Assembly: GCA_965231005.1 (NCBI GenBank) | Contig: OZ246405.1 | Coordinates: 476,223 to 540,222, forward strand | DNA: 64,000 nt | Reading direction: 5' to 3' | From: an uncultured Gammaproteobacteria bacterium | GTDB taxonomy: Bacteria; Patescibacteriota; Patescibacteriia; Magasanikbacterales; UBA922 | Part shown: piece by piece, positions 37,290 through 63,128 of the stretch | Layout: each line of letters begins with the position of its first letter | Position numbering within the stretch: the first letter of the stretch is position 1 | Program-made: the position numbers and the translations under genes | The notes under the pieces: generated by a model | Database searches by the model: none | What the model was told of the DNA's origin: nothing | Seen by the model: only the letters and a program-made list of their open reading frames with translations

Positions 37290-37400
37290 ATCTGATAGAA
37301 CACGGATTTAACTGATTGAATAGATCAAAACGGATCTAATTCGTGGAAATCCGTGTTCTATCTATATAAATCCTAGTTGATTTGTAGCTGTTATGTTAAC
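37290..37400. repeat. Imperfect-palindrome intergenic repeat, copy B
   Basis: ATAGAACACGGATTT (37295-37309) and its exact reverse complement AAATCCGTGTTCTAT (37347-37361) flank a nested AGATC...GATCT hairpin. The tail ctatctatataaatcctag matches copy C. Confidence 0.55.
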
Positions 37401-37420
37401 TAATAAAACCAAGATAATTT

Positions 37421-37520
37421 GTTAATTGTTTCAGCCAAAGGCTGATCCGCCTCTGGCGGAAATTGCTGATTGTTTATTATACACATATTTATTCATTTTC
37501 TCTCTCTATTATGGTATAAT
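37421..37520 (+). promoter_or_regulatory. Conserved 56-nt upstream block (TTGTTAATTG motif plus two short hairpins) followed by extended -10 TGGTATAAT (37512-37520)
   Basis: About 89% identical to 50160-50215, which is also followed by TGGTATAAT. The TTG 'start' at 37426 lies inside this block, so I treat that N-terminal extension as non-coding. Confidence 0.5.
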
Positions 37521-37536
37521 TTACCTAACAAATCAT

Positions 37537-38229
37537 ATGCAGGATCCATCCTCAACGCACGACTTTTCGAAAGAGCAAAAGACTGGTTTTGTCTTACTGC
37601 TTATTTTTGGTGTATTAACTGTTGCTCTTGGTTTTTTACAAATTAGAAACACAATTTATAAGCCATTTATTATCAGTTCATCACAGACAGAGGACGGTTC
37701 AGATGTAACAGCACTTTTAGATGAAACAACACGGTTACAAACCATTGATACAGATCAAGATGGGCTCAATGATTATCAAGAGTTACATTTTTTTCAAACA
37801 AGTCCATATATTCCAGACACAGATTCAGATGGGTTAACTGACAAGCAAGAATTAGATGGCGGAACTGACCCACTTTGTCCACGAGGAGAGGATTGTTCAA
37901 AAAGTCAGCTTCCAACCGAGCAAGAAAAAGCACCAATTGGTATTTCTGATCTTGCAAATGTTCCAACAGCACAAGATCTTGTGAATAGTGCTGCTCCGCA
38001 GCTTCCAAATGCTCCAGCAAATACAGCAAATGCAAATTCAGAAGGTATTGCACAATTAAAAGAATTATTAAAAGATCCAGCAAAATTGCGTGCATCACTC
38101 GTACAAAGTGGTCAGGTTTCAGAAAGTGATCTTGCACAATTTGATGATGCAACACTTGTAAAAACATTTGAAGATATTCTTGCAAAACAACAGGCGGCTG
38201 TTCCAGCAGGCGCAACACCTCAACCATAA
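37537..38229 (+). CDS. Single-TM protein with thrombospondin-type-3/dockerin-like Ca-binding motifs (DTDQDGLNDYQE, DTDSDGLTDKQE)
   Basis: Start placed at ATG 37537, downstream of the extended -10. TM helix GFVLLLIFGVLTVALGFL, two D-x-D-x-D-G-x-x-D motifs and a Pro/Ala-rich tail. Confidence 0.55.
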   Translation: MQDPSSTHDFSKEQKTGFVLLLIFGVLTVALGFLQIRNTIYKPFIISSSQTEDGSDVTALLDETTRLQTIDTDQDGLNDYQELHFFQTSPYIPDTDSDGLTDKQELDGGTDPLCPRGEDCSKSQLPTEQEKAPIGISDLANVPTAQDLVNSAAPQLPNAPANTANANSEGIAQLKELLKDPAKLRASLVQSGQVSESDLAQFDDATLVKTFEDILAKQQAAVPAGATPQP

Positions 38230-38247
38230 GGCGTAGATTTCCAGATT

Positions 38248-41200
38248 ATGCTTTTCAACACAAAGCACAAAAAAACAAAATCAGTATTTCTCAGTATCTT
38301 TCTTGGAGTGTTTTTGGCTGTTGAAATAGTTGGATTTACATTTTTAGCAAAACCTGCACATGCTGCTGGACTTCCTGTTGTCGATGCTGTTGCCTCTGGA
38401 CAACGTGCAAGTAGTAGTGTGTGGGATACGATTTTGAAAACACTCTATGCAACTGGGTTGAGTGCGCTTATGACAGGTGTTTCGTATATGACACGTAAGA
38501 TCGCATACGACACAGCAGTCTATGCGGCAACAGGATTTAAAGGGCAAAAGCCACTTATCTTTACAGATAGATGGGATGAATATTTAGCAACCGAAGGTGG
38601 AAATGCAGCTGCAACAGCCATTGATCAATTTGGAGAGTCGTTTGGGTTGAATCTTTGTGGTTTCCCGAATGTGAGATTGCAGGCACAAGTCCAAATTGGA
38701 CTTCGAACATTGTACGATCAAGATCAGTTTGGTGTTTCAGGACCACAACCGACCTGTTCTTGGCAACAAGTTTCAGAGCTTTGGGATGCAGAAAATTATA
38801 CCAAGCTTGGAGATTCCGCATTAAATGTCTTTAGTGATGCAATAAGTGTACGAGAAAGTGACTTTGGTATTACACTTGCAGCAATTGAAAAAATCGATCG
38901 ATTCCAAGCAGTACAACAACAAGCAAAATTTTTAGAACGACTTGAAGGAAAAGGATATAAAGCTGTGAAAGGTCTTATTTCAGATAATATCAGAACACCA
39001 GCAAACATTGTTGAAGAAGAAACAAAGGTCCTTACAGCAAAACATCAAGGAGAAATAACATATAGTCAAATTTCTGGTATTTATGGTTCAGGAGCATTGG
39101 AAATTTTACCACAGGCTGCATCTGTCTTTATTAACACATTTTTGAGTCAAGGATTAAATAATTTATTGACAGAGGGACTTGTTCCAGACAAAGCACCTTC
39201 AGAATCAGGAGATGGTGTTGGCAGTTATTATGCTGAGTCAATTGTCAGTAGGAAAAAAGCAACAGAACAAGCATTTAGTTACTTATTTACTGCAGTTCCA
39301 AAGAAACAACTTGGTGCATACGATGCACTTGCAGAGCTTGCAGCATGTCCAAAAAACAGTACAGGCTTAAACAACTGTGTAATTGACGAAGGATTAAAAC
39401 AAGCAATCACTCGTGCAAAGCAGGGTGAGGCACTCACCATAGAAGAAGCAATGGCACCCAATGTTGGGTTGCTCAATGGAGACTGGCCACTTATTTCACC
39501 ACTTCGTATTGCAGATAATACAGATCTTGATTGTAGGTTAAAAGGATATTGTTATTCAAATATTCAAAAATTGAGAAAACTTCGTGTGCTTCCAACAGGG
39601 TTTGAAATTGCAGCACTGCGATCTGATCCAGACAAGCCATGGACACTTCGGCAAGTTGTTGAAGGATATAACAACTGTGATTTTCTTGATCCACCAAAAA
39701 ATACAAAAGTAAAATACAATCCAAAAAAACCATTTTGCCGACTTATTGATCCAAATTGGATTATTCGTCTTCCAGAAACACGTTGTGAATCAACAGTGTT
39801 TGGACCTGAGCTTGTAACAGATGGTTCTCCAGATCGACGAGAAGAATGTGTTGATATTTCTACCTGTATTACAGAGGGACCAAATGGAGAGTGTATTGGA
39901 GATGAATATTATGGATACTGTACGCGAGAACAAAATATCTGGCATATTGGACAAGAATCATGTCCTGCACAATTTAATACATGTAAAACATTTGTTGATG
40001 CTGGTGGTTCTGCTCGTTCTTATTTATCACGAACCATAGATTATGGTGCATGTAATATTGATACGGTTGGTTGTCGTGCATATAGCTTGGAAAGAAAAAA
40101 TGTTGGTCAAGCAGCGTCTCCATGGAAACACAGTGACGAGGTAAATCTTGAATTGAAAAAATTGGGGCGGAATCAAGTCATGTACTTTAATAGTAAAGTT
40201 GCAAACTTCTCATGTCAGGGTGGAGAAGGATGTAATGCGTTCTACCAAGCAGAAGAGACAGATACAGGATATAAAAAACCTGCACAACCAAAACCTATTT
40301 ATTTGAAAAAAGCACCAGACTATCTAGGTTGTTACGATACAAACCCAACACAGCTTGGTATTCAATGGCCAAAAACAAAGAGTGATCTTGCAGCGCTGCC
40401 AGGTCATCCAGCATGTAATTCATTTGCAAATGTTTGTCTTCCAGAAGAAGTAGAATGTCAACAATACAATGCCGTTGCATCTGGCAATGTTGTTTCTGGA
40501 ATTATTGGAACCAAGTTTGCATGTGACGAAGTCTGTGTTGGTTATGATGCATTTAAACAAGAAGCATCATCATTTGAAAAAGACAAATATCCATTGTACT
40601 TCATCCCAGACAATGCAAGATCATTTATGGAAATAAATAATCTTTCTTGTTCTGCAGCAGAAGTCGGATGTGAAGAATTTACGAATCTAAATACAGAAGA
40701 TCTTGAATACTACACAAACATTAAATACTGTGAACAACCAGATGGAAATAATGAAAAAGCATTTTATTCTTGGGAAGGGGATCAGGCAACAGGATTTGTA
40801 TTGAAGACTCATAAATTACTACAAATTGACCAAGAAGAATTTAGCTATATCAATGACAATGCAAAGCCAGCACTTGGAGCATCGAGCGTTGCAAAAGTAT
40901 TCCCTATTGGTTCTCCAGCATATGCAGAAGATAGTAAGAAAAAACTAGAAGCACAGTATGCTATTTGTAATGAAACATTGTACAAGAATTTGGTGAACAA
41001 TGTTCCAAATGCACCAAAAGCTGATGCAGATTGTCGAGCACTATATGACGATGATGGAAAAGTATTTTATCGTTTGTTAGCAAATACTGTCGTTGTTTCA
41101 GATCAATGTCAGGACTTAAGAAGGACAACAGCAACATTTGAAGTTGATACAGACATTGCTTCAAAACAAGCATGTGATAACAAAGCAGGTGTGTGGCAAA

Positions 41201-44200
41201 ATAATCAGTGTCAACGATGTATGGGCGGTGGTGAATTTAAGAATGGAAGTTGTGTCTACGCTGCAATTACTGGTGTAGGCCAATCAACATCATGTACACC
41301 AGCTGCAAATGGATGTCGAAAATATGTTGGAAGCACTGGAAATAATACTGGTGACATATTTAAAGATGAATTTGAACCAAATACTCCTGATGATATAAAT
41401 AAAGCAGTTGAAGGATATGCTGCAACAGGAGGCAATGGAGTTGCAAAGATGGCAACAGAATCAATTCAGGTTGGACTTCATTCTCTTCAAGTTGATGCAA
41501 AAACACTCACACGAACAGTGCCAGTTGCTTCTATTCTTCCAGGAGAAGATGATTTATATGAAATTTCATTCTGGGCAAAAGGTGGACCACTTGCTCTTAC
41601 AATAGAATTAAAAGGTGAAGGCAATGTTTCATATACACTCACACAAAATAATCAAACTGGTCAGGCATCATCTGCATCTGTTGGAAATGAGTGGCGACAA
41701 TACAAATATGGCCCAGTTCGAATTGATAAAGAAGTGAAAAAACCAACACTTGTATTTACATCAAAAGTAAATGGCATTGGTTCAACATACTTCTTGGACA
41801 ACCTCCGCTTTACTCGAATTACAGACACATATTATCTTGTAAAAGATTCATGGAAAACACCAGAAGGATATGATGTTCCATTGATTTGTGATGCAAAACC
41901 AAATGATCCATTCCCAGGTACAGCTCTTGGCTGTCAGGCATATACCTTTACAAATAGTGATGGAAATACACAGCAAGCATTTGCAACTGGTTTTGAAAAA
42001 CTTTGTCGACAAGATGCTATTGGATGTGAAGCACTGTATGACACATATAACACTGTTGAAATTCCATTTGCAGAAGATGCACATATTTATAAATTAGAAT
42101 GTAGCAATACAAATACACCTGTTACAAAAAATACAACATGTGAACTTACCTTTGGTGGAAAGAACCTCGATGATGGATCTTGTACAATTGGCGTTGGTGA
42201 AACAACCTGTCTTGTTGACCACATTACACTTGAAAAAGCTACAGATGTAGATAAGGTTGGAAATGGAAAAGTAGTAAAATCAACAATTATTGTTCCAGAA
42301 GATACACCAGAAAGTGATCCTATTTTCCTTACAAATCGTGATGAATTTACCTGCCAAGGAACACAGCAAGGATGTCAGCGTGTTGCACTTGAAGAGCAAA
42401 AGGTAAAAGCGACCAGTACGACATATTCATTCCCAAGTGAAGCAACAGTACTCAATAACCCAGACACATACTTAGACAACAATAACAGTATTTTATGTTC
42501 ACAAGATACTGTGGGATGTTCACAATTTGGTGGAAGTGCTGGTACATCATTTTTCAAAGATCCACTCCTTACAGGAAATAGAATTTGTGATTATAGAAAA
42601 GATGTTGAAAAAGATGGTGAACTTGTCAGTGGTTGGTTTAGATCAAATTCAGAAGGCAATGTTCCATGTTATGACAAATTCTTAGAAGAAAGTGGTGTCT
42701 ATGGTATTAATTCAAACAAGTCAACATTTTATGAGGGATTTGTAGGAGCATGTCCTGCACAGTTTGATCAATGTACAGAATTGGTCGACAGATATGATAT
42801 AAGTGAAGAATTTCCAAAAGGAAAACCATATTATTCATTATTCAATGCTCAACTTCTCAAGAGTATTGATGAATGTGGTGGACAAGCAAGTTTGAAAGAA
42901 GGATGTGTCTTGTTCGACAGGACAGAAGATCCAAAGAAATCATACAATGCTTCTGCCACATATGACGCAAGTGAACAAAAAGGATTTATTTCAGTTCCTC
43001 CAATTTCTTCTGCAATACAAGGCAATGATTCAAATGTTATTTTGAAAGTTGGTCGTGACAGAGCATGTAGTGAATGGCTTGCATGTAAAACTGCAGTAAC
43101 CAAGAAAGATGATAAAGGTGTGCCACAGCGACTGTGTTATGACTTCCGTGCTTGTGACGAAGTGAGTGGGGGAGAGTGTGCAAATTGGAAAGATTATGGA
43201 TTTGGAGATGAACTCTTAACTGATGAAAAATATGTCACACGAGATGCGTCGTGGCATGGTGAAGACTATACTGGATACTCATTATTGAACAAATATCAAA
43301 TTACCTATTATGATTATATTGTAACGGGGACTCCGTTTATGGTGTATAAAATGCATCCAGATTACTTTGCAGACAATGAACAGTTTGATTGTATTGAAAA
43401 TGGACAAGCAAAGACGGACTGGAGTGTATGTGGATTTGCTCCAAATAAGGGACGTTGTTTTGACGGACAATGTATTCAACCTGTTGCAGCACCGTTCCCT
43501 ATTGATGCTGATGAAAATTCTCCTGGAAAAGTACTAAAAGCGCTTGGTGATAATACTCAATGTAAGGCATATCCAGAGAAAACAGCACCATTTCCACAAT
43601 CAGTGCTAAAGCAGGTTGCAACTGAAAAGAAAAATGAAGCCAAAAAACAAAATCCAAAAGCGCAAAGTGGACAAGACAGCATGATACCACTTGTTGAAGA
43701 TAATAATGTTATAAAAAAGCAAGTTCGATATGAATTTCCATATCGAAAAGCAGGATTTAGTCAGGTGGGCATCTGTCAAGGAAAGGATGATTGTTCTTGT
43801 AGCTATACAAAGGTTGAATATGGTAGTCCACTTGATGTAGATTATTGGAGTGCAAAACAAAAACAAGAAAAAAGTATTCCTCCAGGACAATGTGTTGGTG
43901 GAGACAACGCAGGTGATCCTTGTTCAGAAGATAGTCATTGTTTCTCAGGAACATGTGGAAAAATAACACGACAAGAAGATCATCTTGGTTTGACTGGTTT
44001 CTGTTTAGAACGAGACCTAAGTCGTCCAATTGATGGGGGAGAAGATCTAAATGGAGATAAAAAGTTCGCATGTCTTACTTGGCTTCCAATTGATGTAAAT
44101 CCTGCAGGACTAGATAATTATAATTTATTCCAAGGTGCTGGATATTCACCATCACTTGATGCTGTGACAGAGAAAAAACAGATTGGTGGGGAAGTTATGT

Positions 44201-47200
44201 GTAGACGTTCAACTGCTATTGGTGCTGGACCGTATGATAAAGCGCTATTGCCTGTATTTAAGGATACATCTGGTACATATTTCAACAAGCAATATCCAAT
44301 TTGTTATGATGATAGTAGTGATCCAAACCAGAATTTGCCTGTTCAAAATCTTTGTGGTGCTCCACAGCCATTTGCAAATGATTCGGATAAATTCAACAAT
44401 AAGGGGGCTGTAATTCAGTATAGCTGTGATTCATCTGATCATAGTGATTTTAATAGATATAGAATGGTCGCATGTAATGCAACAGGAAATAAGAGGAAAG
44501 ATTTCTATGAAGCAATTTTGAGTTGGGCACGGAAAGATGGTTTTGGATTAGTAGGGTCTGGACAAAATGTTGTTGTGCTTAGGACAGAAACAGGGCATGA
44601 GAGTAAATTGACTTCTAAAAATGAGGGAAAAGATATCTATCCTACTAAATTGATACCAATAGATGAGTGGGATGGTATGACCAAAAAAACAGATGGTTCT
44701 TGTTTCACAAACCAACCACAGGCTGGAGGGACAGAAGGAAAGCTCATTGTCCGTCATCCTCCACGGTTATGGAACGAAGAACAAGGAAAATTTAAACAAA
44801 TAAAATACTTTACTCAGGGACCAAATGCAGAGGTCTGGCATCATGAGGGTAATTATTACCAGGATGAGAAGGGTTGTAAGTCGTTTGACGGAAAACTAAA
44901 TGTCTCTGGTGTTGCGGCGTATCCAGGCGAAGTATTTTATGATGAACAGCGAACAAAGGATTATTTATATCGTTCGCCATATGAACTTGTGATGAATCGA
45001 CGTGATTTGAATAAAGTATTCTTTGTTCCAACACTGTTCCCAGGAGGTGCAGAAGGAAATAATCCATTACTCCTTTCAAAGCAAGTGTACATTGATTTCG
45101 CAGAGCTTGATGCACGACTTGATAAGTATACAAAAGGTGAAGCGCAAACATTGAGCATGAAGAATTCTGTGAAAGGATTCCCAAATGATAGTGTACTTGA
45201 TGAAGACGATGGAGAATACAAATATAAAAATGCTGGTGATAATTTTAATGGTAAGTTTATTGATGCTGAAGTGTTATTTGCACCAGAGGATTCATCGCAA
45301 TTAGCACCTGGAGGTTTCAAACCAACAGTTAACAAAGATAATGCCGTCTACACATATGTAGTTACTCCATCACAAGATAATGATTTGAATAAAAAACACT
45401 ATGAGTTATATGAAGGTTCGGGAAGCGATCCAAAGTTTGCAAAAGCTGCAAAGGACTCCAGAAATTATATTGATCGCCGGTATGTATTGGTGTATCACAA
45501 TGATCACAATGCAAAGAAGACAAAAGCAGGCATGAATAATAAGTTGCGGAATTTGGAGTGGATAAGAAATAATTTAGATAAAAATACTGGAATTCCGAAA
45601 GCAGATCCGTTTACTGAGAAGGTTGTTTGTGATAAACGTTTGGCTTTTCCAACAGATGATAAATCTGATGAGACAGATGAAGATCGATATGGAGGAAACA
45701 ATTGGTTTGCTATTGGTATGGACTTTAATAAGAATGGAGAATTTCTTGGCTATGTTTCTCGATGGTGCATGCAAACAAACAACAATGCTTTAGAAGATGG
45801 TGGAATTAACATGGCCGTCATTGCACAAGTGAAAGATCAATGTGTTGACTATGTTCAGGTCAGTGATACAACAAAAGATGGAGTAGAAGATGTTCCAAAT
45901 AAAGCATGGACAAATCGTGTATGGATAGACGCTCCGTGGCAAGCCGGTATTAGTGGAAGACTTTTGCCAGATGTTGATATACGACCATTTGGTAGTACAG
46001 AATTAACTGGAAAAGATCTTCAAGTTTATAAGAAAGAGAAACCTAATGAAATTAATGTAGATGTTGTAAAAGCTTTATCAGAAAGAAGAATTACAAATCC
46101 GAAAGTCGATGGGTATCCGTTTGTCTGTATGAATCCTCTCATCAAGGGATTTGGTTTTGCAAACATAAATGCATTTGGTAGTGATAATGCATGTGGTGGT
46201 GTAGAGCTTGGTGTTGGTAGTAATTCAAAAAGTGGTATTAAAAATCCTGAAAAGGAATTCAATGATGCTTCGACAAGACTGTATAATTTATTTGCTCGTT
46301 CATACAAAGTTGTACAACGTGCAGGAGATGTAGGATTTGCAAACAAGAGTCAGTGGAATACGTGGGATGGAACTGACTATGCAAAGGATTCTAAAAAGTG
46401 GCTTGCAGGCTCAAATGTGATTGGTGGAATAGAAGACAGAGGAAACAAGGTTGGAAAAGATTTGAGTCCACCAGTTATTTATTCATTAAACCCACAGACA
46501 TGTTTCAGAGAAACTGGTGCTACATGTGGTGTTGGTGAAAAAGACAATATTACAGTTTCAGAAAAGAATGGAACAAGAACAGATTATAATGGTGATGAGA
46601 TTTCTGACGAAGACCCACAAGGAATAGGACTTCATGAAGCAATTATTAGAAACAAGAACTTTGGTGCAGTAGTAAACTTCTATGCTGCTGCAGACGACAA
46701 TAGAATGCCACTACGTCGTGTTATGATGAATTGGGACGATGGATCATTTACCAATGATGAAACATTTGGTCGATACAAAAACCACAAACCATATTGTGAT
46801 ACAGCAGAGGCTGCGCAAAAAGATAAGAAAGATCCAGACAACAGAAAACCAGATGTTGGTCTTTGTATGAGAAAGTCAGATACGATTCCTTCGCTTATGA
46901 CATGTCAGGAAGACAAGGATTGTCCTGTTGTAGCAGAAGGTCAAGAGCCGTATGAATGTGCAAAAGCAGATGCTGGGCAAGGTGAATTAAAACTTCCAGG
47001 ATATATTAAAAAAGGTGTGTCAGATCATGGTACATACCAAGAACCGCGATTTGGAAATGCACCACGTGCATGTGAAGACAATTTCTTCGAATTCAGACAT
47101 GGGTACACGTGTCCAAAAGATTTCCAACAAAAAGTAAATCAAACAGCGTTTGGTGGAAAGCATGGATATGTTCTTTCTCCAGATACAATTGCAAGACTTG

Positions 47201-47403: not shown

Positions 47404-47530
47404 ACCCCACCCCTGTGTCTGACCTGAAGGTCAGACCGCCCTCCCCTTGGCAGGGGAGGGAACGGTATAAACCCTCCCCCTGCTAAGGGGGAGGTGGCCA
47501 AAGGCCGGAGGGGGTTAACTACAAAACAGT
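47404..47530. repeat. Cluster of GC-rich palindromic (REP-like) units immediately after the giant gene stop
   Basis: GTCTGACC-tgaa-GGTCAGAC, CCCTCCCC-ttggca-GGGGAGGG and CCTCCCCC-tgctaa-GGGGGAGG are adjacent. Composition differs abruptly from the AT-rich gene. Confidence 0.5.
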
Positions 47531-47536
47531 AAAACA

Positions 47537-47567
47537 AAAAATCTGGCTTAAAGCCAGATTTTTTATA
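47537..47567 (+). terminator. Rho-independent terminator
   Basis: AAAATCTGGCTT-TAAGCCAGATTTT with flanking T-run. Confidence 0.7.
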
Positions 47568-47664: not shown

Positions 47665-48243
47665 CTACTCGTAGATGTGAGAGGTCTCGGTCAGGAGTTC
47701 GCCGTCGGCGCTGTATCGCTGCTGGTAGAGCAGACCGTCGTCCTTCTTCTCGATGCAGGCGTCTTCGTTGATCTCGTCGATGTGCAGACAGGCTTTGGAC
47801 TCAGCATGGTCAGGATCGACTTCGATGGTCATCTTGTTGAAGAGCAGGTGTTTGCCCACGAGGTTGACGTAGCACTTGCCGTTTTCGACTTTGCAGCTGA
47901 TCTCGCCCTTACCGAGCTTGGAGCCCTTGCGGCGGAACTTGCCGTCCATGGCCAGGATCGCATCCGAGCAGGTGACCATCGGGTCCGTGACCTCAATGGC
48001 CTCGCACACGCCGTCGGACTGACGACAGGTCTTGCCCATGGGGCAGCCCACGGTCTCATCGCGGCAGTCGGTCGTCTTGGTCGTGTCGGGCTTCGTGGTG
48101 TCGTCGGGGGTCGTCTTGGTCAGATCGGTCTTGGCGACATCGGTCGAAGTCGGGTTGGTGTTGCTGGACTCATCGGCGCTGCAGCCGAACGTGAACGTCG
48201 CGACCACCAGGGCCGCAACGAGAGAGGTCATGACCTTGTACAT
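47665..48243 (-). CDS. High-GC small secreted lipoprotein, Thr/Asp/Lys-rich linker plus Cys-containing domain
   Basis: SD GAAGGAGA upstream of MYKVMTSLVAALVVATFTFGC. Start placed at the internal Met, as the upstream extension lacks an RBS. G+C by eye is in the high 50s %. Confidence 0.6.
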   Translation of the reverse strand: MYKVMTSLVAALVVATFTFGCSADESSNTNPTSTDVAKTDLTKTTPDDTTKPDTTKTTDCRDETVGCPMGKTCRQSDGVCEAIEVTDPMVTCSDAILAMDGKFRRKGSKLGKGEISCKVENGKCYVNLVGKHLLFNKMTIEVDPDHAESKACLHIDEINEDACIEKKDDGLLYQQRYSADGELLTETSHIYE

Positions 48244-48738
48244 GGTCGTCTCCTTCTCGCTCCGTCGGAGCGAATGTGCTCCAGATCGGAGCTGGTGGCT
48301 TTGGTGGTGTCCGCGGAAATGCGAACAAAGGGCGTCCACTACCTATGTCGAGGACTCAATTTCCGTACAACTTTGCACGAGAATTGTCTCCTCAACATAG
48401 GAGTATTTCACACACGCGTATGATGTTATATATTCGCTTGATTGAGCAAAGATATAAACATGTAAAAGAGCAATTTATCTACTAAATTCGGAGGGTATAC
48501 TCCATCTAAAACATACCATAAAATAGGCAAAATGTCAAATGTCAAGAGGTGCTTGTGGATAAGTTTTCTCTCTTCGCAGACCCTAAATTAGGGGTAAAAA
48601 ACAGTGAAATACAGAAATAGTGCGAAAATTTGCTAAAACAAGGGTTAAAATGCGTGGAGTGGGTTTTATCTTTATTTTATTTTTTCTATGGTAGTATCTC
48701 AGTGTTTTTCCACAGCGGACTACACAAAGGAGGTCCAC

Positions 48739-49760: not shown

Positions 49761-49952
49761 CCTCTTGCCATTTAAAGCCTTTATAGCCTTTACGGCATTT
49801 ATGGCCTTTTTTATTTTTTCTTTATCTATTTCCCTTAGAATTGCTTATTTTTTTCACGGTCAAAAACCGACTTTTTATTTTCTTCATATCCATCTTGATA
49901 TCTTTGCTCTGTGGGGCGCGACTGCGTTCATCTATGTTTGGAGGAAATACAA

Positions 49953-49982: not shown

Positions 49983-49992
49983 ATAAAAAAAA

Positions 49993-50249: not shown

Positions 50250-50281
50250 ATACAGCATAATATACATGGAACTCTTGATAA

Positions 50282-55466: not shown

Positions 55467-56642
55467 ATGATGGATCTTAGCGTAATGATAATACAATTAT
55501 ATGCAGAAAAAACTCCTGAAGAGATTGAGAAGTTGTTAGCATTGGTTGAAACAAAATCAACAGAATATTATGCACATACATGGCAAGATGTCACAGTTGA
55601 ACTCTTAGCAGATCAAGAAGTGCAATTAAATCTTATTAGAACTCTGTATCAGTCTTCTTTTTCTTATTCTGGTGTTGTAGATGAAATTCTTCGTTCGTTA
55701 GATGAATGGTCAGAACGAACATTAATTTTTGAACATCTTTCCTCAAATGATAATATTTTTTATCGAAGATTTTATACATTTTTAGGATTTTTGAATTTTG
55801 CAGATATTGAATTTAAGCGAAAAATGAGATTGCTTGATTCAGAATTGCTTGTACTGGCATGCCATTGGGATATTCCTATATATGTAAATGTTCAGTCACA
55901 CTTTGCAGAATTTGCACAAATAAATGCACTCAAAAAAGAAGCGCTTCTTTTTGCAAATGCTATTGCTGCAAATCAAACAGAGCTAGGTGAAGAAAGAAAA
56001 GAATTAAAAACAATTGCGCAGTGGGTAAAAGCATTTGACGAGCATGAAGGTGCTACGTTTGAAGAGCGAGTAGACACATTTTTATCTGAACAGTTTGAGG
56101 CAACACGTTTGTCAGAAGCAGACTCAAATATTTTAGGGAAAATTCTTTCATTGTACTGGAGTTTAAAAGGATCTTTTATTTGGCAAGAAATTGTTAACAG
56201 CCATACTGCTGGTTATGAGCAAGTAGAAAAGAAAAATGTTCGTTCGGTTGATGATCATTATATTCAGTTATTATACGAAGGAACAGAACAAGACATTGTG
56301 GAATGGTTGCAAGATTATGAAGAAACAGTTCATTGGATAGATCTAACTGGAAAGTCAGAAGCATTTGTAAAGAAAATCTTGTTTGTGCTATCAGAAAAAG
56401 TTGATTTACAAAATCAGCAGCAGGTAGAACTTGTTATTAAATTTATTAATAAGTTAAAAGAACGAGGACTCGAGCTTATTGATGAAGTACTGTACTTTGA
56501 TGAAGAAGATCATTCGTTCCACTGGGATGAAGAACTTATTTTTGCAGAGAGCGAGGAAGAAACCCCAGCTTCCTCTGAAGGTGCAGATGATAATAAGGAA
56601 TCAGATGAGTTAAAGAAACTAAAAGATTCATTCGCACAATAA
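55467..56642 (+). CDS. Acidic cytoplasmic hypothetical protein (391 aa)
   Basis: ORF only; no motifs recognised. Confidence 0.5.
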   Translation: MMDLSVMIIQLYAEKTPEEIEKLLALVETKSTEYYAHTWQDVTVELLADQEVQLNLIRTLYQSSFSYSGVVDEILRSLDEWSERTLIFEHLSSNDNIFYRRFYTFLGFLNFADIEFKRKMRLLDSELLVLACHWDIPIYVNVQSHFAEFAQINALKKEALLFANAIAANQTELGEERKELKTIAQWVKAFDEHEGATFEERVDTFLSEQFEATRLSEADSNILGKILSLYWSLKGSFIWQEIVNSHTAGYEQVEKKNVRSVDDHYIQLLYEGTEQDIVEWLQDYEETVHWIDLTGKSEAFVKKILFVLSEKVDLQNQQQVELVIKFINKLKERGLELIDEVLYFDEEDHSFHWDEELIFAESEEETPASSEGADDNKESDELKKLKDSFAQ

Positions 56643-56790: not shown

Positions 56791-58314
56791 ATGGCAAAGA
56801 AAACTCCACAACAAAATGATCAGCCAAGTGCACAACGTCCACCATCTGGTGCGCCGGTTATTCGAATTAAAAAAGCAGACGGAAGTATTGCGACTGTTCC
56901 ATTGGATCAGTTTAAAAAACAATATACTGATTCTTCAAAACAGGCACCTACTACAAGTCCATCAGCCACTCCTGCCTCACCGGCAGGCAGGCCTTCTCCA
57001 TCGGCAGCTGAATCAACTCCACCGGCAGCTCCTGCCTACGCCAAGGTTTCGGCAGGTAAACCAGCCTCACCGGCAGGCAGGCCTGCAGTTGCTGTTCCAC
57101 CACCATTGCAACGGGTAAAAAATAAATTGAAACTTAATTTTTCATCTTCATCTAAAAAGAGTGTTGCTCCTACGCCTCCAGATGTTGAAAAAGAATCACC
57201 AAAAGAAATACCAACGCCAGAAAAAAAGGTTGTTCCTCCAGCTCCTATGCCTGCGAAAGAAAAGGTTTCAAAAGAGTTGCCAAAAAAGATTGAAACACCT
57301 CAAGCTGTTCCAGCACAAGAAGATGAATTTCTTTCTTTTGAAGGACAAGTTCCGCCTCCACCTCCTGTTCGCATGACAAAAGAAAAGGTAGAACGTTCTC
57401 CTACAGATATGCTTGCAGAAACAGCAACGCATGCACTATCTACAACAACTCCTGTTGCACATGCCTTTGTTGATGCTGCTGCAGCAAAAGCATGGGACAA
57501 AGAAGATCATAGTTCTCCTTTGGAAATGTCTATGCACGAGCACGAGGAAGTTCCAGATCATCTTCCAGCACTGCCTGAACAACACGACGAAGTATTAGAT
57601 GAAGTATTGCATTCTCTTTCTTTTCAGATTAGTGAAGAGCTTCATAGCCGTGTAAAATCACTTATTCAGTCGCGGTTAAAAGAAATTAGAACTGATGATC
57701 AGATAATTGCCTATGGAGTTAGACCTGCACAGCAGGGTGGTCTTGGATTAAAACAAGAAGAAGCAAAGATACTTCTCGATGCAATATTGAACGCATTGCA
57801 CCTTCCTCATCAGAAACGAAAAAAAGAAGAAAAAAGAAAACAGGTAAAATCATCTATACCTATTGCGCCACCGATACAAACATCTCAAAAAGCTCCAGTT
57901 GCAAATGTTGCACCACGTCCGCGTGCAGTTCCTTTGAAAAGTACAGGTAAACCAATGGTACATGATGTGCAACATCCAGAACCTGTTACTCATATGCAAA
58001 CAGTCGGACCCATTGATGAACTTCGTATGTTTTCATTAGAAGATTTACGACGTCTTGGGACTACTCCAGATGCGATGTATCAAAAATTATTAGAGAAATT
58101 TACTATTTTGCAAAAAGAATCATATTTACTGTATATCGATGCTGTACAAGCATGGTATCACAGTCCGTTGTATCGTTTGTATCAGTCGCTTTTGCAACAA
58201 GCAATTAACAATGAAAAACCAATGAAAGATATTATTCAGTCACAGGGAAAGGGAAGCATCACAATGGATGAATTTTTACATATTGCAGAACTAGGAAAAA
58301 ATATTAGTTATTAA
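56791..58314 (+). CDS. Pro/Ala/Ser-rich protein (507 aa) with globular C-terminal domain
   Basis: ASPAGRP tandem motif, PPPPP runs and a KRKKEEKRK stretch. Confidence 0.55.
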   Translation: MAKKTPQQNDQPSAQRPPSGAPVIRIKKADGSIATVPLDQFKKQYTDSSKQAPTTSPSATPASPAGRPSPSAAESTPPAAPAYAKVSAGKPASPAGRPAVAVPPPLQRVKNKLKLNFSSSSKKSVAPTPPDVEKESPKEIPTPEKKVVPPAPMPAKEKVSKELPKKIETPQAVPAQEDEFLSFEGQVPPPPPVRMTKEKVERSPTDMLAETATHALSTTTPVAHAFVDAAAAKAWDKEDHSSPLEMSMHEHEEVPDHLPALPEQHDEVLDEVLHSLSFQISEELHSRVKSLIQSRLKEIRTDDQIIAYGVRPAQQGGLGLKQEEAKILLDAILNALHLPHQKRKKEEKRKQVKSSIPIAPPIQTSQKAPVANVAPRPRAVPLKSTGKPMVHDVQHPEPVTHMQTVGPIDELRMFSLEDLRRLGTTPDAMYQKLLEKFTILQKESYLLYIDAVQAWYHSPLYRLYQSLLQQAINNEKPMKDIIQSQGKGSITMDEFLHIAELGKNISY

Positions 58315-58447: not shown

Positions 58448-58918
58448 ATGCAACAATTTGTTGTTCCACAATTTATTGATGTTGAAGATAAAATTTTTGG
58501 TCCAATTACCACAAGACAATTTTTAATTTTGCTCGTTGGGAGTTTAATTATTTTTGTTGGATACAGACTTGCAGATTTTACATTATTTATTTTTATTGTG
58601 GCTATTATTGGGGGTCTTTCACTAATATTTGCGTTTGTAAAAATAAATGGACAAGATTTTCATTATTTTTTGTTAAATATTTTTCAGACAATGCGGCGTC
58701 CTGGACTTCGAGTATGGAGAAAAGCATATACAAAAGACGAATTAAATTTTTTGCGCAAACGTGACATGGAAATAGAGGTAGTCGAGGTACAAACAAGAAA
58801 GAAAGCAAAGCAATCACATATTCGAGATCTTTCATTAATTGTAAACACTGGTGGATATTATCGACCACTCGATGGAATTACACCCCAAGAAAAAACAACA
58901 CTCCCTCCACTTCATTAG
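58448..58918 (+). CDS. PrgI/VirB3-like small membrane protein
   Basis: The N-terminus FIDVEDKIFGPITTRQFLILLVGSLIIF followed by a second TM helix resembles the PrgI/TcpE family. It sits immediately upstream of VirB4. Confidence 0.5.
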   Translation: MQQFVVPQFIDVEDKIFGPITTRQFLILLVGSLIIFVGYRLADFTLFIFIVAIIGGLSLIFAFVKINGQDFHYFLLNIFQTMRRPGLRVWRKAYTKDELNFLRKRDMEIEVVEVQTRKKAKQSHIRDLSLIVNTGGYYRPLDGITPQEKTTLPPLH

Positions 58919-58976: not shown

Positions 58977-59687
58977 ATGGCAAAGGAAAAGAAACAAAAA
59001 AAAGGACAAACAAAAAAGAAAAAGAAAAAACCAAGTCGTCCATCTACACAGACATATTTGCCGATTGCAGAAATTCGAGACGGTGTTTTAGTGTTGAAAG
59101 ATGGAACACTCCGAAAAGTAATGCTTACATCGAGTATTAATTTTGCCCTAAAGTCTGAAGATGAACAAAACGCACTTATTTCTTCGTATGTTGGCTTTTT
59201 AAATTCCTTAGATTTTCCATTGCAGATTGTTATTCAGTCTCGCAAATTACAGACGCGACCGTATTTAGACAAATTGGTTGCTGCAGAAAAAGAGCAACAA
59301 AATGAGTTGCTTCGAGTGCAGATTGCAGATTACAGGGCATTTATTGAAGAACTCGTTGAGATTGGTCAAATTATGACAAAGCGTTTTTATGTTGTTGTAT
59401 CATATGATCCTGCATCAAATAAGAAAAAAGGATTTTTTACACGCATGAAAGAAGTTATAAAACCAGCATCTGCCATTCGTTTAAAACAATCACGATTTAA
59501 TCAACGAAAAGAAGATTTGGATTTACGCGTCCGACAAGTTTCTGGTGGATTGCAAAGTATTGGTTTGCAAGTTGTTGAACTAGACACACAAGCATTGATT
59601 GAATTATTTTATTCAACCTATAATCCAGATATTTCTTTTGATCAGGGATTAGGAAAAATAGAAGATCTCAGAGTTGAGAATCTCTAA
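58977..59687 (+). CDS. VirB4/TraC N-terminal domain encoded as a separate ORF
   Basis: LPIAEIRDGVLVLKDGTLRKVMLTSSINFALKSEDEQNALISSYVGFLNSL is the typical VirB4 N-domain. A stop falls at 59685-59687, and the next ORF begins 13 nt later in the +1 frame. Confidence 0.6.
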   Translation: MAKEKKQKKGQTKKKKKKPSRPSTQTYLPIAEIRDGVLVLKDGTLRKVMLTSSINFALKSEDEQNALISSYVGFLNSLDFPLQIVIQSRKLQTRPYLDKLVAAEKEQQNELLRVQIADYRAFIEELVEIGQIMTKRFYVVVSYDPASNKKKGFFTRMKEVIKPASAIRLKQSRFNQRKEDLDLRVRQVSGGLQSIGLQVVELDTQALIELFYSTYNPDISFDQGLGKIEDLRVENL

Positions 59688-59700: not shown

Positions 59701-61575
59701 ATGCCATTTAAGCCAGAATCCGCAGGAGCGGGCAGACAACGTTCCGGAAAACTGCAGAAGAAGCAGGGAAAGGAACAAGAATTGAAAAAAGAATTGATTT
59801 CGATTGAAGAAGAACGAACCTACCGAGAGGGAACTGTTGCTATCCGTGACTTGATCGCTCCATCTACATTTCGTGTTGAATCAAACTTTATCCAGCTTGG
59901 TGATGTTTTTTTGCGCACCATTTTTGTTATTAGTTATCCACGGTATATTTCTGTTGGATGGAGTTCTCCACTCCTCAACTTAAATATGACAATGGATGTT
60001 TCAATGTTTTTCTATCCTGTTCCATCGCCAATTATTTTAAAACAATTAAAAAAGAAGGTTGGAGCACTGCAAGCACAGCTCAGTGCAGATGCAGAAAAAG
60101 GTGCGCCACGAGATCCAATTCGTGAAACGGCTCTTCGTGACATTGAACAGCTTCGTGACGATCTTACCCAAGGAATTGAACATTTTTTCCAATTTGGATT
60201 TTATGTCACTATTTATGCAAAAGAAAAAGAACAGCTCGAGCAAATAAGTGAAGATATTGAAAATATTTTTGGTTCAAAACTTATTTATACAAAAAATGTT
60301 TTGTTCCAGGCTGAACAAGGATTTACATCAACACTGCCACTTGGAATAGATGAACTTATGGTTGGATTTAATATGAATTCTTCACCAATTGCATCATCGT
60401 TTCCATTTATGTCTTCAGAACTTACCAGTGACGATGGTATTTTGTATGGAGTAAATAGACATAATAATAGTTTGATATTATTTGATAGATTTACCATGCA
60501 AAATGCAAATATGGTTGTGTTTGCTACATCTGGTGCTGGTAAATCATACGCAGTGAAACTCGAAGTGCTTCGAAGTCTGATGCTTGGAACAGAAGTGATT
60601 ATTATTGATCCAGAAATGGAATATGTGCACCTTACAGAAGCGGTTGGTGGAACATTTGTGAATATTTCTCTTGCATCTGAAAGTAAAGTAAACCCATTTG
60701 ACTTGCCACGACCAGTTGGTCAGCAGATTTCAACAGAAGATGTTATTCGTAGTGCAGTTATTACAGTAAAAGGAATGCTTCGGATTATGTTTGGCAAGAT
60801 TACACCGCAAGAAGATTCTATTTTGGATCGTGCACTCCTTGAAACATATGCAAAAAAAGATATTACACCAGCAAGTGATTTGGCAACAGTTGAATCTCCA
60901 ATTATGCAAGACTTGCTTGATGTGCTCGAAGGAATGGATGGTGCAAGTACCCTTGCATTAAAATTGAGAAAATATACAGAAGGGACATTTGCAGGATTGT
61001 TCAATGCACCAACAAATGTGAATATGGATAATCAATTGGTTGTATTTAGTGTGCGTGATCTAGAAGATGAGTTACGTCCAATGGCAATTTACTCTCTGAT
61101 TAGTTATATTTGGAATATTGTCCGAAGTGAACGAAAAAAACGTATTCTCATTATTGATGAGGCGTGGTGGCTTATGACGCACGAAGATAGTGCAAAGTTT
61201 GTCTATGCACTTGTAAAACGATGCAGAAAATATTATCTTGGAATTACAACAATTACACAAGATGTTAATGACTTTTTGCGATCTCAGTATGGTCAGGCAA
61301 TTGTGACAAATTCATCCATGCAGTTGCTGTTGAAACAATCTCCATCTGCCATTGAAACAATTCAAAAAACATTCCTTTTAACCGAAGGAGAAAAATTCTT
61401 ACTTCTTGAAAGTGCTGTTGGAGAAGGAATTTTCTTTGCGGGATTGAAACATGCAGCGATTAAAGTTGTTGCATCGTACACAGAAGACCAACTTATTACG
61501 TCAGATCCACAGCAACTTCTTGAAATAGAAAAAGCAAAAGCAGAATATGAAGCAGAGATTGCAGGACGGGGGTAA
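59701..61575 (+). CDS. virB4: VirB4/TraC/PrgJ-like type IV secretion ATPase (central and C-terminal domains)
   Basis: Walker A SGAGKSY and Walker B LIIDEAWW are present. The conserved segment GDVFLRTIFVISYPRYISVGW is also found. Confidence 0.85.
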   Translation: MPFKPESAGAGRQRSGKLQKKQGKEQELKKELISIEEERTYREGTVAIRDLIAPSTFRVESNFIQLGDVFLRTIFVISYPRYISVGWSSPLLNLNMTMDVSMFFYPVPSPIILKQLKKKVGALQAQLSADAEKGAPRDPIRETALRDIEQLRDDLTQGIEHFFQFGFYVTIYAKEKEQLEQISEDIENIFGSKLIYTKNVLFQAEQGFTSTLPLGIDELMVGFNMNSSPIASSFPFMSSELTSDDGILYGVNRHNNSLILFDRFTMQNANMVVFATSGAGKSYAVKLEVLRSLMLGTEVIIIDPEMEYVHLTEAVGGTFVNISLASESKVNPFDLPRPVGQQISTEDVIRSAVITVKGMLRIMFGKITPQEDSILDRALLETYAKKDITPASDLATVESPIMQDLLDVLEGMDGASTLALKLRKYTEGTFAGLFNAPTNVNMDNQLVVFSVRDLEDELRPMAIYSLISYIWNIVRSERKKRILIIDEAWWLMTHEDSAKFVYALVKRCRKYYLGITTITQDVNDFLRSQYGQAIVTNSSMQLLLKQSPSAIETIQKTFLLTEGEKFLLLESAVGEGIFFAGLKHAAIKVVASYTEDQLITSDPQQLLEIEKAKAEYEAEIAGRG

Positions 61576-61694
61576 TAGTTATTAGTTACTAGCTATTAGT
61601 TATTAGGTCATAGATAATCTGACTTACAATTACTAGATGAACGTACCAAGATTTTTAGTAACTATTAACTAATAACTATTAACTAGTAGAGAAT

Positions 61695-62276
61695 ATGTTA
61701 GATATTCGAAAAAGACTTTTCATCATTTTAGGTCTTGGAGCAGGGCTGATTCTTGTTGTTATTTTGATAATTATGTTTGCTTCAAAGTCTCCTGATGGGG
61801 AAAAAGATATTACAGTAGACACGTTTGTTCCTCAGCAAGTCATCAATACAGATTCAGATGATGCAAAAAGTGATGTGATTGTTCCACCAGACGTTACCAG
61901 TCCTTCTGTTGTGGAAGATGAAAATGAATTATACGCACGGCAAACTGCACGACTTTTTGTTGAAAGATTTTTAAGTTATTCAAATCAAAATAGTAATAAA
62001 CATATTGAAGACGTTCTTCCACTTGCAACAGCGCGGATGAAGCAGTGGATTGCTTCACAAGAAGTGGACGAAGGCACTGCATATGAAGGTGTAACAACAA
62101 AAGTTATTGCAAGTAGTATAAAATCAATTAGTAGTAACCAAGCAATAGTAAATTTTGGTGTGCAGCAAACAATTCAAACAATTACAAAAAAAGATATTAA
62201 GACTCGTGATGGACAACTTTACTTACTAAGGTCTGGCAGTGACTGGAAGGTAGATGGGTTGTTCTGGGATCGGTAA
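61695..62276 (+). CDS. Bitopic membrane protein (N-terminal TM plus about 165-aa extracytoplasmic domain); possible VirB8-like
   Basis: Topology and size only; no motif match. Confidence 0.35.
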   Translation: MLDIRKRLFIILGLGAGLILVVILIIMFASKSPDGEKDITVDTFVPQQVINTDSDDAKSDVIVPPDVTSPSVVEDENELYARQTARLFVERFLSYSNQNSNKHIEDVLPLATARMKQWIASQEVDEGTAYEGVTTKVIASSIKSISSNQAIVNFGVQQTIQTITKKDIKTRDGQLYLLRSGSDWKVDGLFWDR

Positions 62277-62280
62277 AAAA

Positions 62281-62421
62281 ACAATTAACAACTAACAATT
62301 AACAAACTATTTGGGTGCGGTAAGCCTCTGAATGTTCTTTTGAAGATTTACACGAACTGGATTCGTATAAAGAACCAAGAAAACTTGTTAATTGTTTTTT
62401 GTTAATTGCTAATTGTTTTAT
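62281..62421. repeat. MITE-like element, copy E (inverted relative to copy D)
   Basis: acaattaacaactaacaattaacaaac ... cttgttaattgttttttgttaattgctaattg terminal inverted repeats. The core matches the reverse complement of copy D. Confidence 0.6.
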
Positions 62422-62423
62422 AT

Positions 62424-63128
62424 ATGAAGGGGGGAATAAAAAGAATTTTTGAATTGTTGAAAGATTATATCTTTCCGCTATTTTGTCTGGGTTGTAAAAA
62501 AGAAGGAATGTGGGTGTGCAAAGATTGTTTGAATCAGATTGAAACTGTTGGGATATTTCAGTGTCCTGTTTGTGAAAAAGAAAATAAGAATGGACGATGT
62601 TGTGATAATTGTAAAACATCGTCTTTTTTGTTTTGGCATATTGCTGCGGGAAAATATAATGAAGATGAATTATTGGGAAAAATTATTTATCAACTTAAAT
62701 ATCAGTACGTCGAAGAAATGGGGGAGTATGTTTCTTTTTTTATAGAATCTTTTTTAGAAGCAAGAAAAAAAGATTTTTCTTCATTTGATTATATTATCCC
62801 AGTTCCATTGCATAAACGGCGTTTTGCAGAAAGGGGATTTAATCAAGCTGAACTGATTGCAAAGATATTTTCAGAACAAACAAACGTCCCTATTCTTGAT
62901 TGCTTAAAACGACAACGATATACAAAACAGCAAGCACGATTGGATCGTGATAAACGTCAAAAAAATCTTGATAATGCATTTTTGCTTCATTCTCTTGAAC
63001 TAAAAAACAAAAAAATCATCCTTGTAGATGATGTGTTTACAACAGGGAGCACAATGCAAAGTTGTGCAAGGGTTTTAAAAGATGCTGGAGCAGGGGAGGT
63101 TGTTGGATTCACCTTAGCAAGAGGGTAA
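62424..63128 (+). CDS. comFC: ComF-family phosphoribosyltransferase with N-terminal double zinc-ribbon
   Basis: CLGC..C..C, CPVC and CCDNC cysteine pairs, plus the PRTase motif IILVDDVFTTGST. I chose ATG 62424; the longer ORF from TTG 62406 would extend into the repeat. Confidence 0.8.
   Translation: MKGGIKRIFELLKDYIFPLFCLGCKKEGMWVCKDCLNQIETVGIFQCPVCEKENKNGRCCDNCKTSSFLFWHIAAGKYNEDELLGKIIYQLKYQYVEEMGEYVSFFIESFLEARKKDFSSFDYIIPVPLHKRRFAERGFNQAELIAKIFSEQTNVPILDCLKRQRYTKQQARLDRDKRQKNLDNAFLLHSLELKNKKIILVDDVFTTGSTMQSCARVLKDAGAGEVVGFTLARG

Follow-up and report, generated by a model that had tools for sequence, protein, structure and literature searches.

We analyzed a 64,000-nucleotide (nt) stretch of DNA (the window; contig OZ246405.1, positions 476,223 to 540,222, assembly GCA_965231005.1) from an uncultured member of the Magasanikbacterales (Patescibacteriota), in which a first-pass annotation made from the sequence alone had pointed out a neighborhood resembling a type IV secretion system (T4SS). 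The genes listed in that annotation are all present at the positions given there. The span from 37.3 to 63.1 kb encodes, in order, a TSP3-repeat protein, a giant Cys-rich exoprotein, an insert, VirB6, a 391-amino-acid (aa) protein, a 507-aa protein, PrgI, TrsD, VirB4, a VirB8-like protein, and ComF, all on the plus strand except for a minus-strand lipoprotein-like gene in the insert. The upstream neighbors in the window are rpsB, tsf, the gene for a 2,030-aa fn3/Big_13 protein, gap, pgk, eno, two copies of gpmI, and ksgA; two tRNA-Ser genes lie downstream. Conservation was surveyed with tblastn and jackhmmer over approximately 140 fetched related loci, to which the counts per related locus given below refer.

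The VirB4 ATPase (59701..61575, plus strand; 624 aa) carries the middle and C-terminal domains of its family and matched the conju_CD1110 model NF045971 (346.3 bits; cut-off, 325; E = 3.6e-103) as well as PDB entry 4ag5, a solved VirB4 C-terminal domain (5.3e-49). Walker A and Walker B are intact in its translation (FATSGAGKSY and RILIIDEAWW, i.e., GAGKS and IIDEA). The N-terminal domain was not found on this polypeptide; it sits on a separate 236-aa TrsD-like protein (58977..59687, plus strand), whose gene ends 13 nt before virB4, in a TrsD/TrsE-type arrangement. This smaller protein covers the N-terminal 120 to 170 positions of VirB4 models (NCBIfam VirB4_plasma, 9.8e-9; also PF26593 TraC-like) and matched the TrsD model NF041427 at 3e-6 (27 bits, under the cut-off of 200). 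One VirB4 model, CD1110, is shared by the two proteins, positions 9 to 127 aligning with the 236-aa protein (1.7e-7) and positions 176 to 728 with the 624-aa protein. The "split VirB4" of the first-pass annotation therefore stands as regards homology (i.e., two parts of one model) and falls as regards disruption. TrsD and VirB4 were separate open reading frames (ORFs) in all 67 related loci that contained both, and no ORF was matched by both; because they are never fused, the split represents a conserved gene pair rather than damage. A frameshift or assembly error was ruled out on the same grounds and by the recurrence of the same two ORFs in independent assemblies. The PrgI/VirB3-like protein (58448..58918, plus strand; 156 aa) matched Pfam PrgI (4.3e-9; 37.2 bits; cut-off, 27) and has two transmembrane (TM) segments, at aa 20 to 38 and aa 46 to 64.

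The extended VirB6/TrbL-like polytopic membrane protein (50282..55288, plus strand; 1,668 aa) consists of an N-terminal domain of ~370 aa and a charged, Cys-free extension of ~1,200 aa. Its polytopic membrane domain has a VirB6-like fold. By profile, the window protein scored 17.9 to 20.6 bits, below the Pfam TrbL/VirB6 cut-off of 25.9; 6 of 16 homologues matched TrbL at an E value of 0.01 or better (best, 1.6e-6), and precomputed PF19590/PF04610 matches exist for homologues. No VirB6 was matched in PDB sequences by the full-length protein or by profile, and the tail had no match in Pfam or NCBIfam. VirB6 was extended in all related loci (900 to 1,640 aa), with the tail kept only among close relatives. 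The bitopic VirB8-like protein (61695..62276, plus strand; 193 aa) combines a TM helix, a disordered linker, and a C-terminal domain with the VirB8 (NTF2-like) fold; no VirB8-type sequence match was obtained in Pfam or NCBIfam at E values up to 0.1. Among the family identities first proposed, VirB3, VirB4, and ComF were thus borne out by profile and VirB6 and VirB8 by fold, the profile score of VirB6 staying below its cut-off and VirB8 having no profile match.

The ComF(C)-type protein (62424..63128, plus strand) joins a zinc ribbon to a phosphoribosyltransferase (PRT) domain. It matched TIGR00201 comF (3.2e-34; 118 bits, under the strict cut-off of 233), GntX (1.5e-28), and the Pfam domains Pribosyltran (3e-8) and DZR_2 (2.4e-4); four CxxC pairs and a VDDVFTTGST motif are readable in the translation. 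No ComFC sequence match was found in PDB. The comF gene followed the VirB8-like gene in the same orientation in 54 of 54 loci with both (median gap, 34 nt).

Between VirB6 and PrgI lie genes for two conserved, unannotated T4SS-linked families, i.e., an acidic 391-aa protein (55467..56642, plus strand) and a 507-aa protein (56791..58314, plus strand). Both lack TM segments and are predicted to be cytoplasmic. Neither had a match in Pfam, NCBIfam, or PDB sequences, nor did the 507-aa family by PDB profile. The 391-aa family, collected by jackhmmer, was present at 51 loci, mostly situated directly between VirB6 and the 507-aa family, at median gaps of 22 nt and 5 nt, respectively. The 507-aa family was present at 74 loci, mostly directly 5' of PrgI (median gap, 11 nt). 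Its aligned members begin with a short motif, continue through a linker rich in Pro to a conserved domain in the middle, and close with a C-terminal domain of ~110 aa.

A synteny comparison across related genomes, which had been suggested as a check on the first reading, showed the block from VirB6 through the 391-aa and 507-aa proteins, PrgI, TrsD, VirB4, and the VirB8-like protein to ComF to be tightly packed and syntenic in >60 species, with median intergenic gaps of 5 to 34 nt. The remaining families of the block were counted at 69 (PrgI), 71 (TrsD), 70 (VirB4), 62 (VirB8-like), and 54 (ComF) loci. The VirB4-like protein had 62 relatives in species-representative genomes (66 to 86% identity), and those with an informative record title were Magasanik-, Uhr-, Buchanan-, or Parcubacteria or "Patescibacteria group"; these lineages make up class ABY1 in GTDB. 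Two ENA metagenomes, assembled separately, and a 1.23-Mb contig carry an identical protein set. The G+C content of the T4SS genes (0.33 to 0.41) matches the window mean (0.386), which points to native chromosome and not to a plasmid or island. No relaxase, type IV coupling protein (T4CP), VirB11, or integrase was matched among window ORFs of at least 100 aa; the first-pass annotation had likewise reported no relaxase, VirD4-type T4CP, or VirB11. The signature of a mobile element (i.e., foreign composition, an integrase, and a variable context) was not seen, given the native G+C content and the constant synteny. Judged from the housekeeping flanks, composition, and Patescibacteria relatives, the locus is chromosomal and vertically inherited; a plasmid-like element with a relaxase and T4CP, named at the outset as the finding that would overturn the proposal, was not what these 64 kb contained.

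The locus encodes a complete monoderm MPF-FATA-like inner-membrane T4SS core (VirB3, VirB4 plus TrsD, VirB6, and VirB8) without outer-membrane parts, in agreement with the Gram-positive-type assignment made at first pass. Systems of this kind have been described in Patescibacteria (McLean 2020; Wang 2023; Quiñonero-Coronel 2025), including T4SSs in Saccharibacteria genomes (PMC7427843). In the saccharibacterium Southlakia epibionticum, the T4SS is essential for epibiotic growth and neither a relaxase nor a coupling protein was recognized (PMC10633639); essentiality for epibiotic growth of a saccharibacterium is also reported in PMC12857230. A survey of 3,035 Patescibacteria genomes (Quiñonero-Coronel; PMC12102498) placed their VirB4 as a clade nested in MPF-FATA, found TrsD adjoining VirB4 in 1,664 cases, and reported PrgI and VirB6 as well. 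The same survey placed "nearly all" VirB8 homologues in ABY1, ksgA near virB4 across Patescibacteria, and comF, recG, and radA near the T4SS in ABY1. It detected relaxases in only 103 of the 3,035 genomes, VirB2-like pilin genes near virB4 in 1,135 assemblies, T4CP genes often far from virB4, and no PrgB-type adhesin for the Patescibacteria T4SS (PMC12102498).

The window locus shows the ABY1 arrangement (i.e., TrsD beside virB4, a VirB8 homologue, comF and ksgA nearby, a chromosomal position, and no relaxase in the window). We conclude that it is very probably the published relaxase-less chromosomal T4SS of Patescibacteria in its Magasanikbacteria/ABY1 version, here joined by comF and preceded by a giant, and not a new machine. 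Given that the Patescibacteria T4SS, the TrsD-VirB4 pair, and the comF neighborhood of ABY1 had already been published, the core finding is a correct rediscovery, and the first-pass description of a "poorly described system" does not hold. Several features did not appear in the papers searched: the recurrent ksgA-TSP3-giant-T4SS order in metagenomes; the size of the giant family (>1,000 clusters) and its weak CBM4/9-like domain; the pair of cytoplasmic families; a long VirB6 tail as a universal feature of ABY1, together with a direct test of the VirB8-like fold; and a pilin-domain gene beside a DsbA gene, 33 kb upstream of VirB6.

Like the Saccharibacteria T4SS (SEML1_0006-0019; Wang et al. 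2023), the locus is chromosomal, monoderm, MPF-FATA derived, and devoid of a relaxase, and it shares with the Patescibacteria clade the separate adjacent TrsD and VirB4 genes, PrgI/VirB3, VirB6, and a nearby ksgA; comF nearby and a VirB8 homologue are shared with ABY1 reports. Unlike that clade (Saccharibacteria), it has neither an internal pilin array nor peptidase/lysozyme genes 3' of virB4, and its VirB6 bears the ~1,200-aa extension; the cytoplasmic families and the TSP3/giant module are unmentioned in the papers searched. The order VirB6, VirB3, VirB4, and VirB8-like corresponds to prgH-I-J-(K)-L of pCF10, and the VirB4 N-domain forms a separate trsD gene as in pGO1 (TrsC-TrsD-TrsE). In Gram-positive systems, adhesin genes lie beside T4SS genes (e.g., prgA-C on pCF10); the locus resembles Gram-positive conjugative T4SSs in lacking an outer-membrane core and in having adhesin genes, putative here, 5' of the channel genes. 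Unlike pCF10 and pGO1, it has no relaxase, T4CP, or VirB1-type hydrolase and is not on a mobile element, and its putative adhesin is unrelated to PrgB of pCF10.

Further comparisons concern DNA uptake and extended VirB6 proteins. Helicobacter pylori takes in DNA by way of a T4SS (PMC13395361), and its ComFC, which is membrane associated and binds single-stranded DNA (ssDNA), is needed for DNA transport (PMC9005727). The locus resembles this ComB/ComEC/ComFC route in having a VirB4 T4SS alongside a ComF(C) zinc-finger/PRT protein, of the type that handles incoming ssDNA there, and no relaxase is needed (PMC9005727); uptake by the window system is putative. ComB differs in being a diderm VirB2-10 system, and the window has no comEC or comEA. 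The archaeal Ced system is also distinct, as the CedB model matched the P-loop region only (E = 1.5e-13, far under its cut-off). PMC7648143 and PMC12857230 describe a VirB6 membrane domain with a very large hydrophilic extension in Rickettsiales (Anaplasma/Rickettsia), much as seen here. Unlike the Rickettsiales VirB6 paralogues, the window VirB6 is a single-copy protein of a monoderm, with a Cys-free coiled-coil-like tail, and the extensions have no detectable sequence relation.

The first-pass annotation had also reported no pilin, a statement that is not entirely correct for the window as a whole. No VirB2-like pilin was matched near virB4 within the T4SS locus. The sole T4SS_pilin-domain gene of the window (15866..17338, minus strand; 468 to 490 aa) lies 33 kb from VirB6, upstream of it, and 42 kb from virB4, and it encodes a secreted protein that contains a T4SS_pilin hairpin resembling VirB2 (aa ~145 to 198) and a Cys-rich C-terminal domain. 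The hairpin segment matched PF18895 T4SS_pilin at an E value of 9.3e-5, under the cut-off; PF18895 was found in 8 of 24 homologues, one of which is named pilin by NCBI. Directly 5' is a paired gene for a DsbA-like oxidoreductase (17274-18044, minus strand), and the DsbA-pilin-UvrA order is kept in other Patescibacteria (loci L146 and L147). The pilin-domain gene is possibly a distant partner of the T4SS.

Upstream of the T4SS block, the TSP3 gene (37537..38229, plus strand; 230 aa from ATG) encodes a single-pass membrane protein with a Ca-binding TSP3 repeat motif (Pfam TSP3_bac, E = 1.8e-7; one TM segment, on ORF 37426-38229). Translation probably begins at the ATG at 37537, since the TTG that opens the ORF falls within a repeat and 5' of a -10 box. 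The giant (38248..47403, plus strand; 3,051 aa) is a secreted protein with 100 Cys residues (3.3%) and a signal-like N-terminal segment (aa 13 to 31, followed by AHA). Its full sequence had no Pfam or PDB sequence match; a weak CBM4/9-like domain lies at aa ~1052 to 1154, and CBM_4_9 was matched in 3 of 10 full-length homologues (best, 1.7e-5). These 10 align end to end with ~70 invariant Cys residues. An exhaustive search with the first 1,200 residues returned 1,381 clusters at 50% identity (1,048 at E ≤ 1e-30), mostly 2,500 to 3,300 aa long and collinear from the N-terminus.

Metagenomes were scanned for giant loci with an alignment of giant C-termini as the query; a scan with the single C-terminal sequence gave no match. 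A TSP3 homologue lay immediately 5' of the giant in all 22 metagenomic loci with coverage, and ksgA lay 5' of it in 20 of the 22. Of 43 loci in which the sequence ran on for at least 4 kb past the giant, 22 had a VirB6 detected 3' of it, at gaps of -26 to ~7,200 nt (-26 to 200 nt in eight loci). T4SS genes also follow the giant in L094 and L075, which the VirB6 filter had missed; L094 has a divergent 1,599-aa protein with eight TM segments. This frequent but incomplete linkage suggests that the ksgA-TSP3-giant-T4SS-comF order is probably ancestral and often broken. We regard the recurrent order as moderate evidence of a functional link, short of proof.

The list of genes in the first-pass annotation was otherwise right but skipped a strain-specific 2.9-kb insert between the giant and VirB6 (47404-50281), with two lipoprotein-like genes. 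The insert was not found in any related locus, yet it is present in independent assemblies. It opens 3' of the giant with a run of GC-rich hairpins, as read from the sequence (47404..47566, plus strand), ending in a terminator-like hairpin that a terminator scan placed on the minus strand (47534-47566). The first gene (47665..48339, minus strand) encodes a 224-aa Cys-rich protein with a lipobox-like N-terminus and 11 Cys residues. Its G+C content of 0.60, with 0.83 at third codon positions (0.25 for virB4; genome G+C content, 0.39), identifies it as recent foreign DNA; it had no homologue in 140 related loci and no plasmid match, and it is probably not part of the T4SS machine. The ENA record lists as a gene an antisense 261-aa ORF over it (47638-48423, plus strand), which looks spurious. 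The second gene (48688..49686, plus strand; G+C content, 0.435) encodes a 332-aa YD/RHS-repeat lipoprotein-like protein (Pfam RHS_repeat, E = 3.5e-5; lipobox LLFCAC) and was missing from all related loci examined.

In many related loci, a small Cys-rich ORF (150 to 280 aa) on the opposite strand directly follows the giant, and most of these ORFs are predicted to have a TM or signal segment. Examples, all on the minus strand, are L004 1902-2381, L094 11376-11834, L110 11559-12188, L131 10796-11506, L080 3990-4697, L127 8872-9477, L119 8078-8914, and L133 1902-2429. These ORFs share the position of the foreign lipoprotein gene of the window without detectable similarity to it, which suggests a variable cassette at this site.

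The two halves of the locus had also been tied together by shared promoter elements. The blocks themselves are real: 37235-37530 and 49937-50245 are 76% identical over ~300 nt (90% over a 58-nt core), with the same TATGGTATAAT box. The intergenic region after ksgA (37235..37536, plus strand) holds a palindrome with a 16-bp stem (37294-37362), a double hairpin (37432-37460), and the TATGGTATAAT -10-like box; the region 5' of VirB6 (49937..50281, plus strand) holds a terminator (49951-49974), a long palindrome, a double hairpin (50171-50199), and the same box. The hairpins of these regions have folding z-scores of -5 to -7.5. The double-hairpin motif occurs twice in the window (expected, 0), and this element, CAGCCnnnGGCTGATCCGCCnnnGGCGGA (30 to 37 nt), shares 91 to 97% identity between ABY1 genomes. 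A tandem pair of it follows a tRNA gene in L036 (11649-11685 and 11704-11740), with the tRNA 3' end duplicated around it, and in L073 (11121-11150) it lies within a coding sequence, where it encodes QPKADPPVAE. The element resembles a very small, mobile palindromic unit. The long palindrome has three intergenic copies in the window (37294-37362, 49997-50062, and 32385-32471, the last between eno and gpmI); these are 70 to 90 nt long, with stems of 16 to 18 bp that differ yet stay paired (folding z-scores, -5.9 to -7.5). Neither blocks nor palindromes matched an Rfam family at gathering score. A T4SS-specific operator or a known RNA was ruled out by this result and by the copies at the L036 tRNA gene, in the L073 coding sequence, and between eno and gpmI. 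Since the blocks are copies of generic palindromic repeats, they are weak evidence for a common regulator or coregulation, and the tie between the two halves is better founded on synteny, which is frequent although not universal. An insertion of the 12.7-kb segment duplicating the ksgA 3' end was not supported, as the similarity begins only past the ksgA stop codon.

AT-rich motifs of the TTAGTTACTAG / AACAATTAACAA type were observed just 3' of stop codons in the spacers of the T4SS block (56638-56666, 58309-58335, 61573-61613, 61663-61689, and 62277-62305), and a similar motif follows eno (32277).

As a mechanism, we propose that VirB6, VirB3, and VirB8 would form a membrane channel powered by TrsD/VirB4 and that the tail of VirB6, together with the two cytoplasmic proteins (391 and 507 aa), would make up a cytoplasmic docking platform, which may replace the coupling protein. 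The TSP3 protein and the giant would be an ancestral neighbor, most likely a module that binds the host surface, with a function comparable to that of the adhesins whose genes accompany Gram-positive conjugation systems; the giant is perhaps held by the Ca-binding TSP3 protein, oxidized by DsbA, and able to bind host surface glycans. The machine would be a translocon for contact with the host and not an apparatus for conjugation, and a role other than conjugation, as had been proposed at first pass, is also the conclusion of published work on Patescibacteria (PMC12102498; PMC10633639). With respect to cargo, we tentatively favor import of host nucleic acid, passed to ComF on the cytoplasmic face, over effector export, while giving it somewhat less than an even chance. 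This preference arises because comF is operonic in ABY1 and because H. pylori ComFC is a membrane-associated ssDNA handler in uptake borne by a T4SS (PMC9005727 and PMC13395361). That the TSP3 protein and the giant serve the ABY1 T4SS as a dedicated head for binding the host cell wall (i.e., the "missing adhesin" of Patescibacteria T4SSs) and that the whole machine pulls nucleic acid from the host is a doubtful proposition.

Several points weigh against these proposals. Deletion of comEC in Saccharibacteria kills competence and not viability (PMC12857230), so the essentiality of the T4SS there is not explained by classical transformation. The adjacency of comF is specific to class ABY1 and could simply reflect an order of genes that has stayed frozen in a genome of reduced size, and in the window the gap to comF is ~130 to 150 nt, with no tight overlap. 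A giant-like gene was seen in the visible 1 to 4 kb 5' of VirB6 in only 8 of 27 species-representative loci, the insert with its own terminators parts the two in the window, and the CBM_4_9 match of the window giant is weak (E = 0.0096).

One alternative, to which we assign somewhat less than even probability, is that the locus consists of two independent units and that the TSP3 protein and the giant form a general surface structure (S-layer-like or a glycan-binding coat) placed between ksgA and the T4SS by ancestral order. Such independence would account for the 19 to 21 of 43 giant loci with no detectable T4SS gene within 10 kb downstream and for the 19 of 27 T4SS loci with no giant just upstream. 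It also agrees with the terminator-like hairpins and insert that separate the giant from VirB6 in the window, with the generic nature of the shared upstream repeats, and with the other giant surface proteins encoded elsewhere in the window (2,030 aa, fn3/Big_13; 724 aa, Dicty_CTDC). The ksgA-TSP3-giant-VirB6 order in at least 22 metagenomic loci, eight of them with the short gaps of -26 to 200 nt, speaks for a connection, as does the reliance of Gram-positive conjugation on surface adhesins for cell contact, no other adhesin having been found for the Patescibacteria T4SS (PMC12102498).

A serious rival, which we hold to be less probable than nucleic acid import, is that the T4SS exports effectors or other proteins (or pilus subunits) into or onto the host cell to co-opt it, with ComF as an unrelated neighbor. 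Wang et al. (PMC10633639) suggested that the Saccharibacteria T4SS, in which both relaxase and coupling protein are lacking, may be a protein exporter or fulfill some alternative role; protein secretion without a T4CP is known for Ptl and Brucella VirB (PMC12102498), and the two cytoplasmic families could be substrates or chaperones. However, the T4SS block holds no effector candidate with a recognizable toxin or enzyme domain, and a comF gene that is co-oriented and close in 54 of 54 loci with a VirB8-like gene is hard to call chance. We consider it highly improbable that the locus is a conjugative element or its remnant (i.e., a Gram-positive-type T4SS borne by an integrative and conjugative element [ICE] and exporting DNA, the genes for its relaxase and coupling protein lying at other sites). 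In favor of this reading, the best VirB4 matches are conjugation families (CD1110 and Mbov_0397 ICE), the two tRNA-Ser genes at the end of the locus are a classic site of integration, and Patescibacteria T4CP genes often lie far from virB4 (PMC12102498). Against it, the window ORFs of at least 100 aa matched no relaxase, T4CP, VirB11, or integrase, the G+C content is native, the same chromosomal context recurs in >60 species, and only 103 of 3,035 Patescibacteria genomes have relaxases (PMC12102498).

Under the doubtful reading of the TSP3 protein and the giant as the missing adhesin, they would join the extended VirB6, the two cytoplasmic families, and operonic ComF in a contact-dependent machine feeding an organism that, as with other Patescibacteria, is probably unable to make its own nucleotides. 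Before the Patescibacteria T4SS, no T4SS had been shown to be essential for the growth of its owner. The ABY1 form of this system offers testable handles that were not encountered in the papers searched, among them an operonic comF, a clear VirB8-fold subunit, and two families that might replace the coupling protein. A further handle is the giant family, a very large uncharacterized family of Cys-rich exoproteins of ~3,000 aa that are often encoded just upstream of the T4SS and may bind host glycans.

Beyond the 3' end of the locus, a 220-aa ORF (63206-63868, minus strand), which is a called gene in public records, crosses one of the tRNA-Ser genes (63727-63814). The N-terminus that appears conserved by tblastn is tRNA DNA, so the gene, if real, probably starts at Met91 (63598). 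No Pfam domain was found in this ORF, and a receiver-domain identity for 63206-63598 (minus strand) was not supported.

The two other large surface proteins lie upstream of the locus. The 2,030-aa protein (21774-27866, plus strand), encoded between tsf and gap, has fn3 and Big_13 domains with Gly-rich internal repeats and represents another giant of the cell surface, with no relation to the Cys-rich one. The 724-aa protein (6877-9051, plus strand) has six Dicty_CTDC Cys-rich repeats (E = 1.4e-31) and is encoded in a stretch of raised G+C content (0.46 to 0.48); it is probably extracellular and was possibly acquired from elsewhere. Tandem genes for cofactor-independent phosphoglycerate mutase (553 and 526 aa) at 32463-36249 surround a gene for a 23S rRNA-intervening-sequence protein (34256-34630). 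ARAGORN predicted a tRNA-Ile at 9347-9420 (plus strand) with the anticodon TAT (UAU), an unusual isoacceptor for bacteria. A pseudouridine synthase ORF (9387-10496) overlaps this tRNA gene, and its start is therefore probably further downstream.

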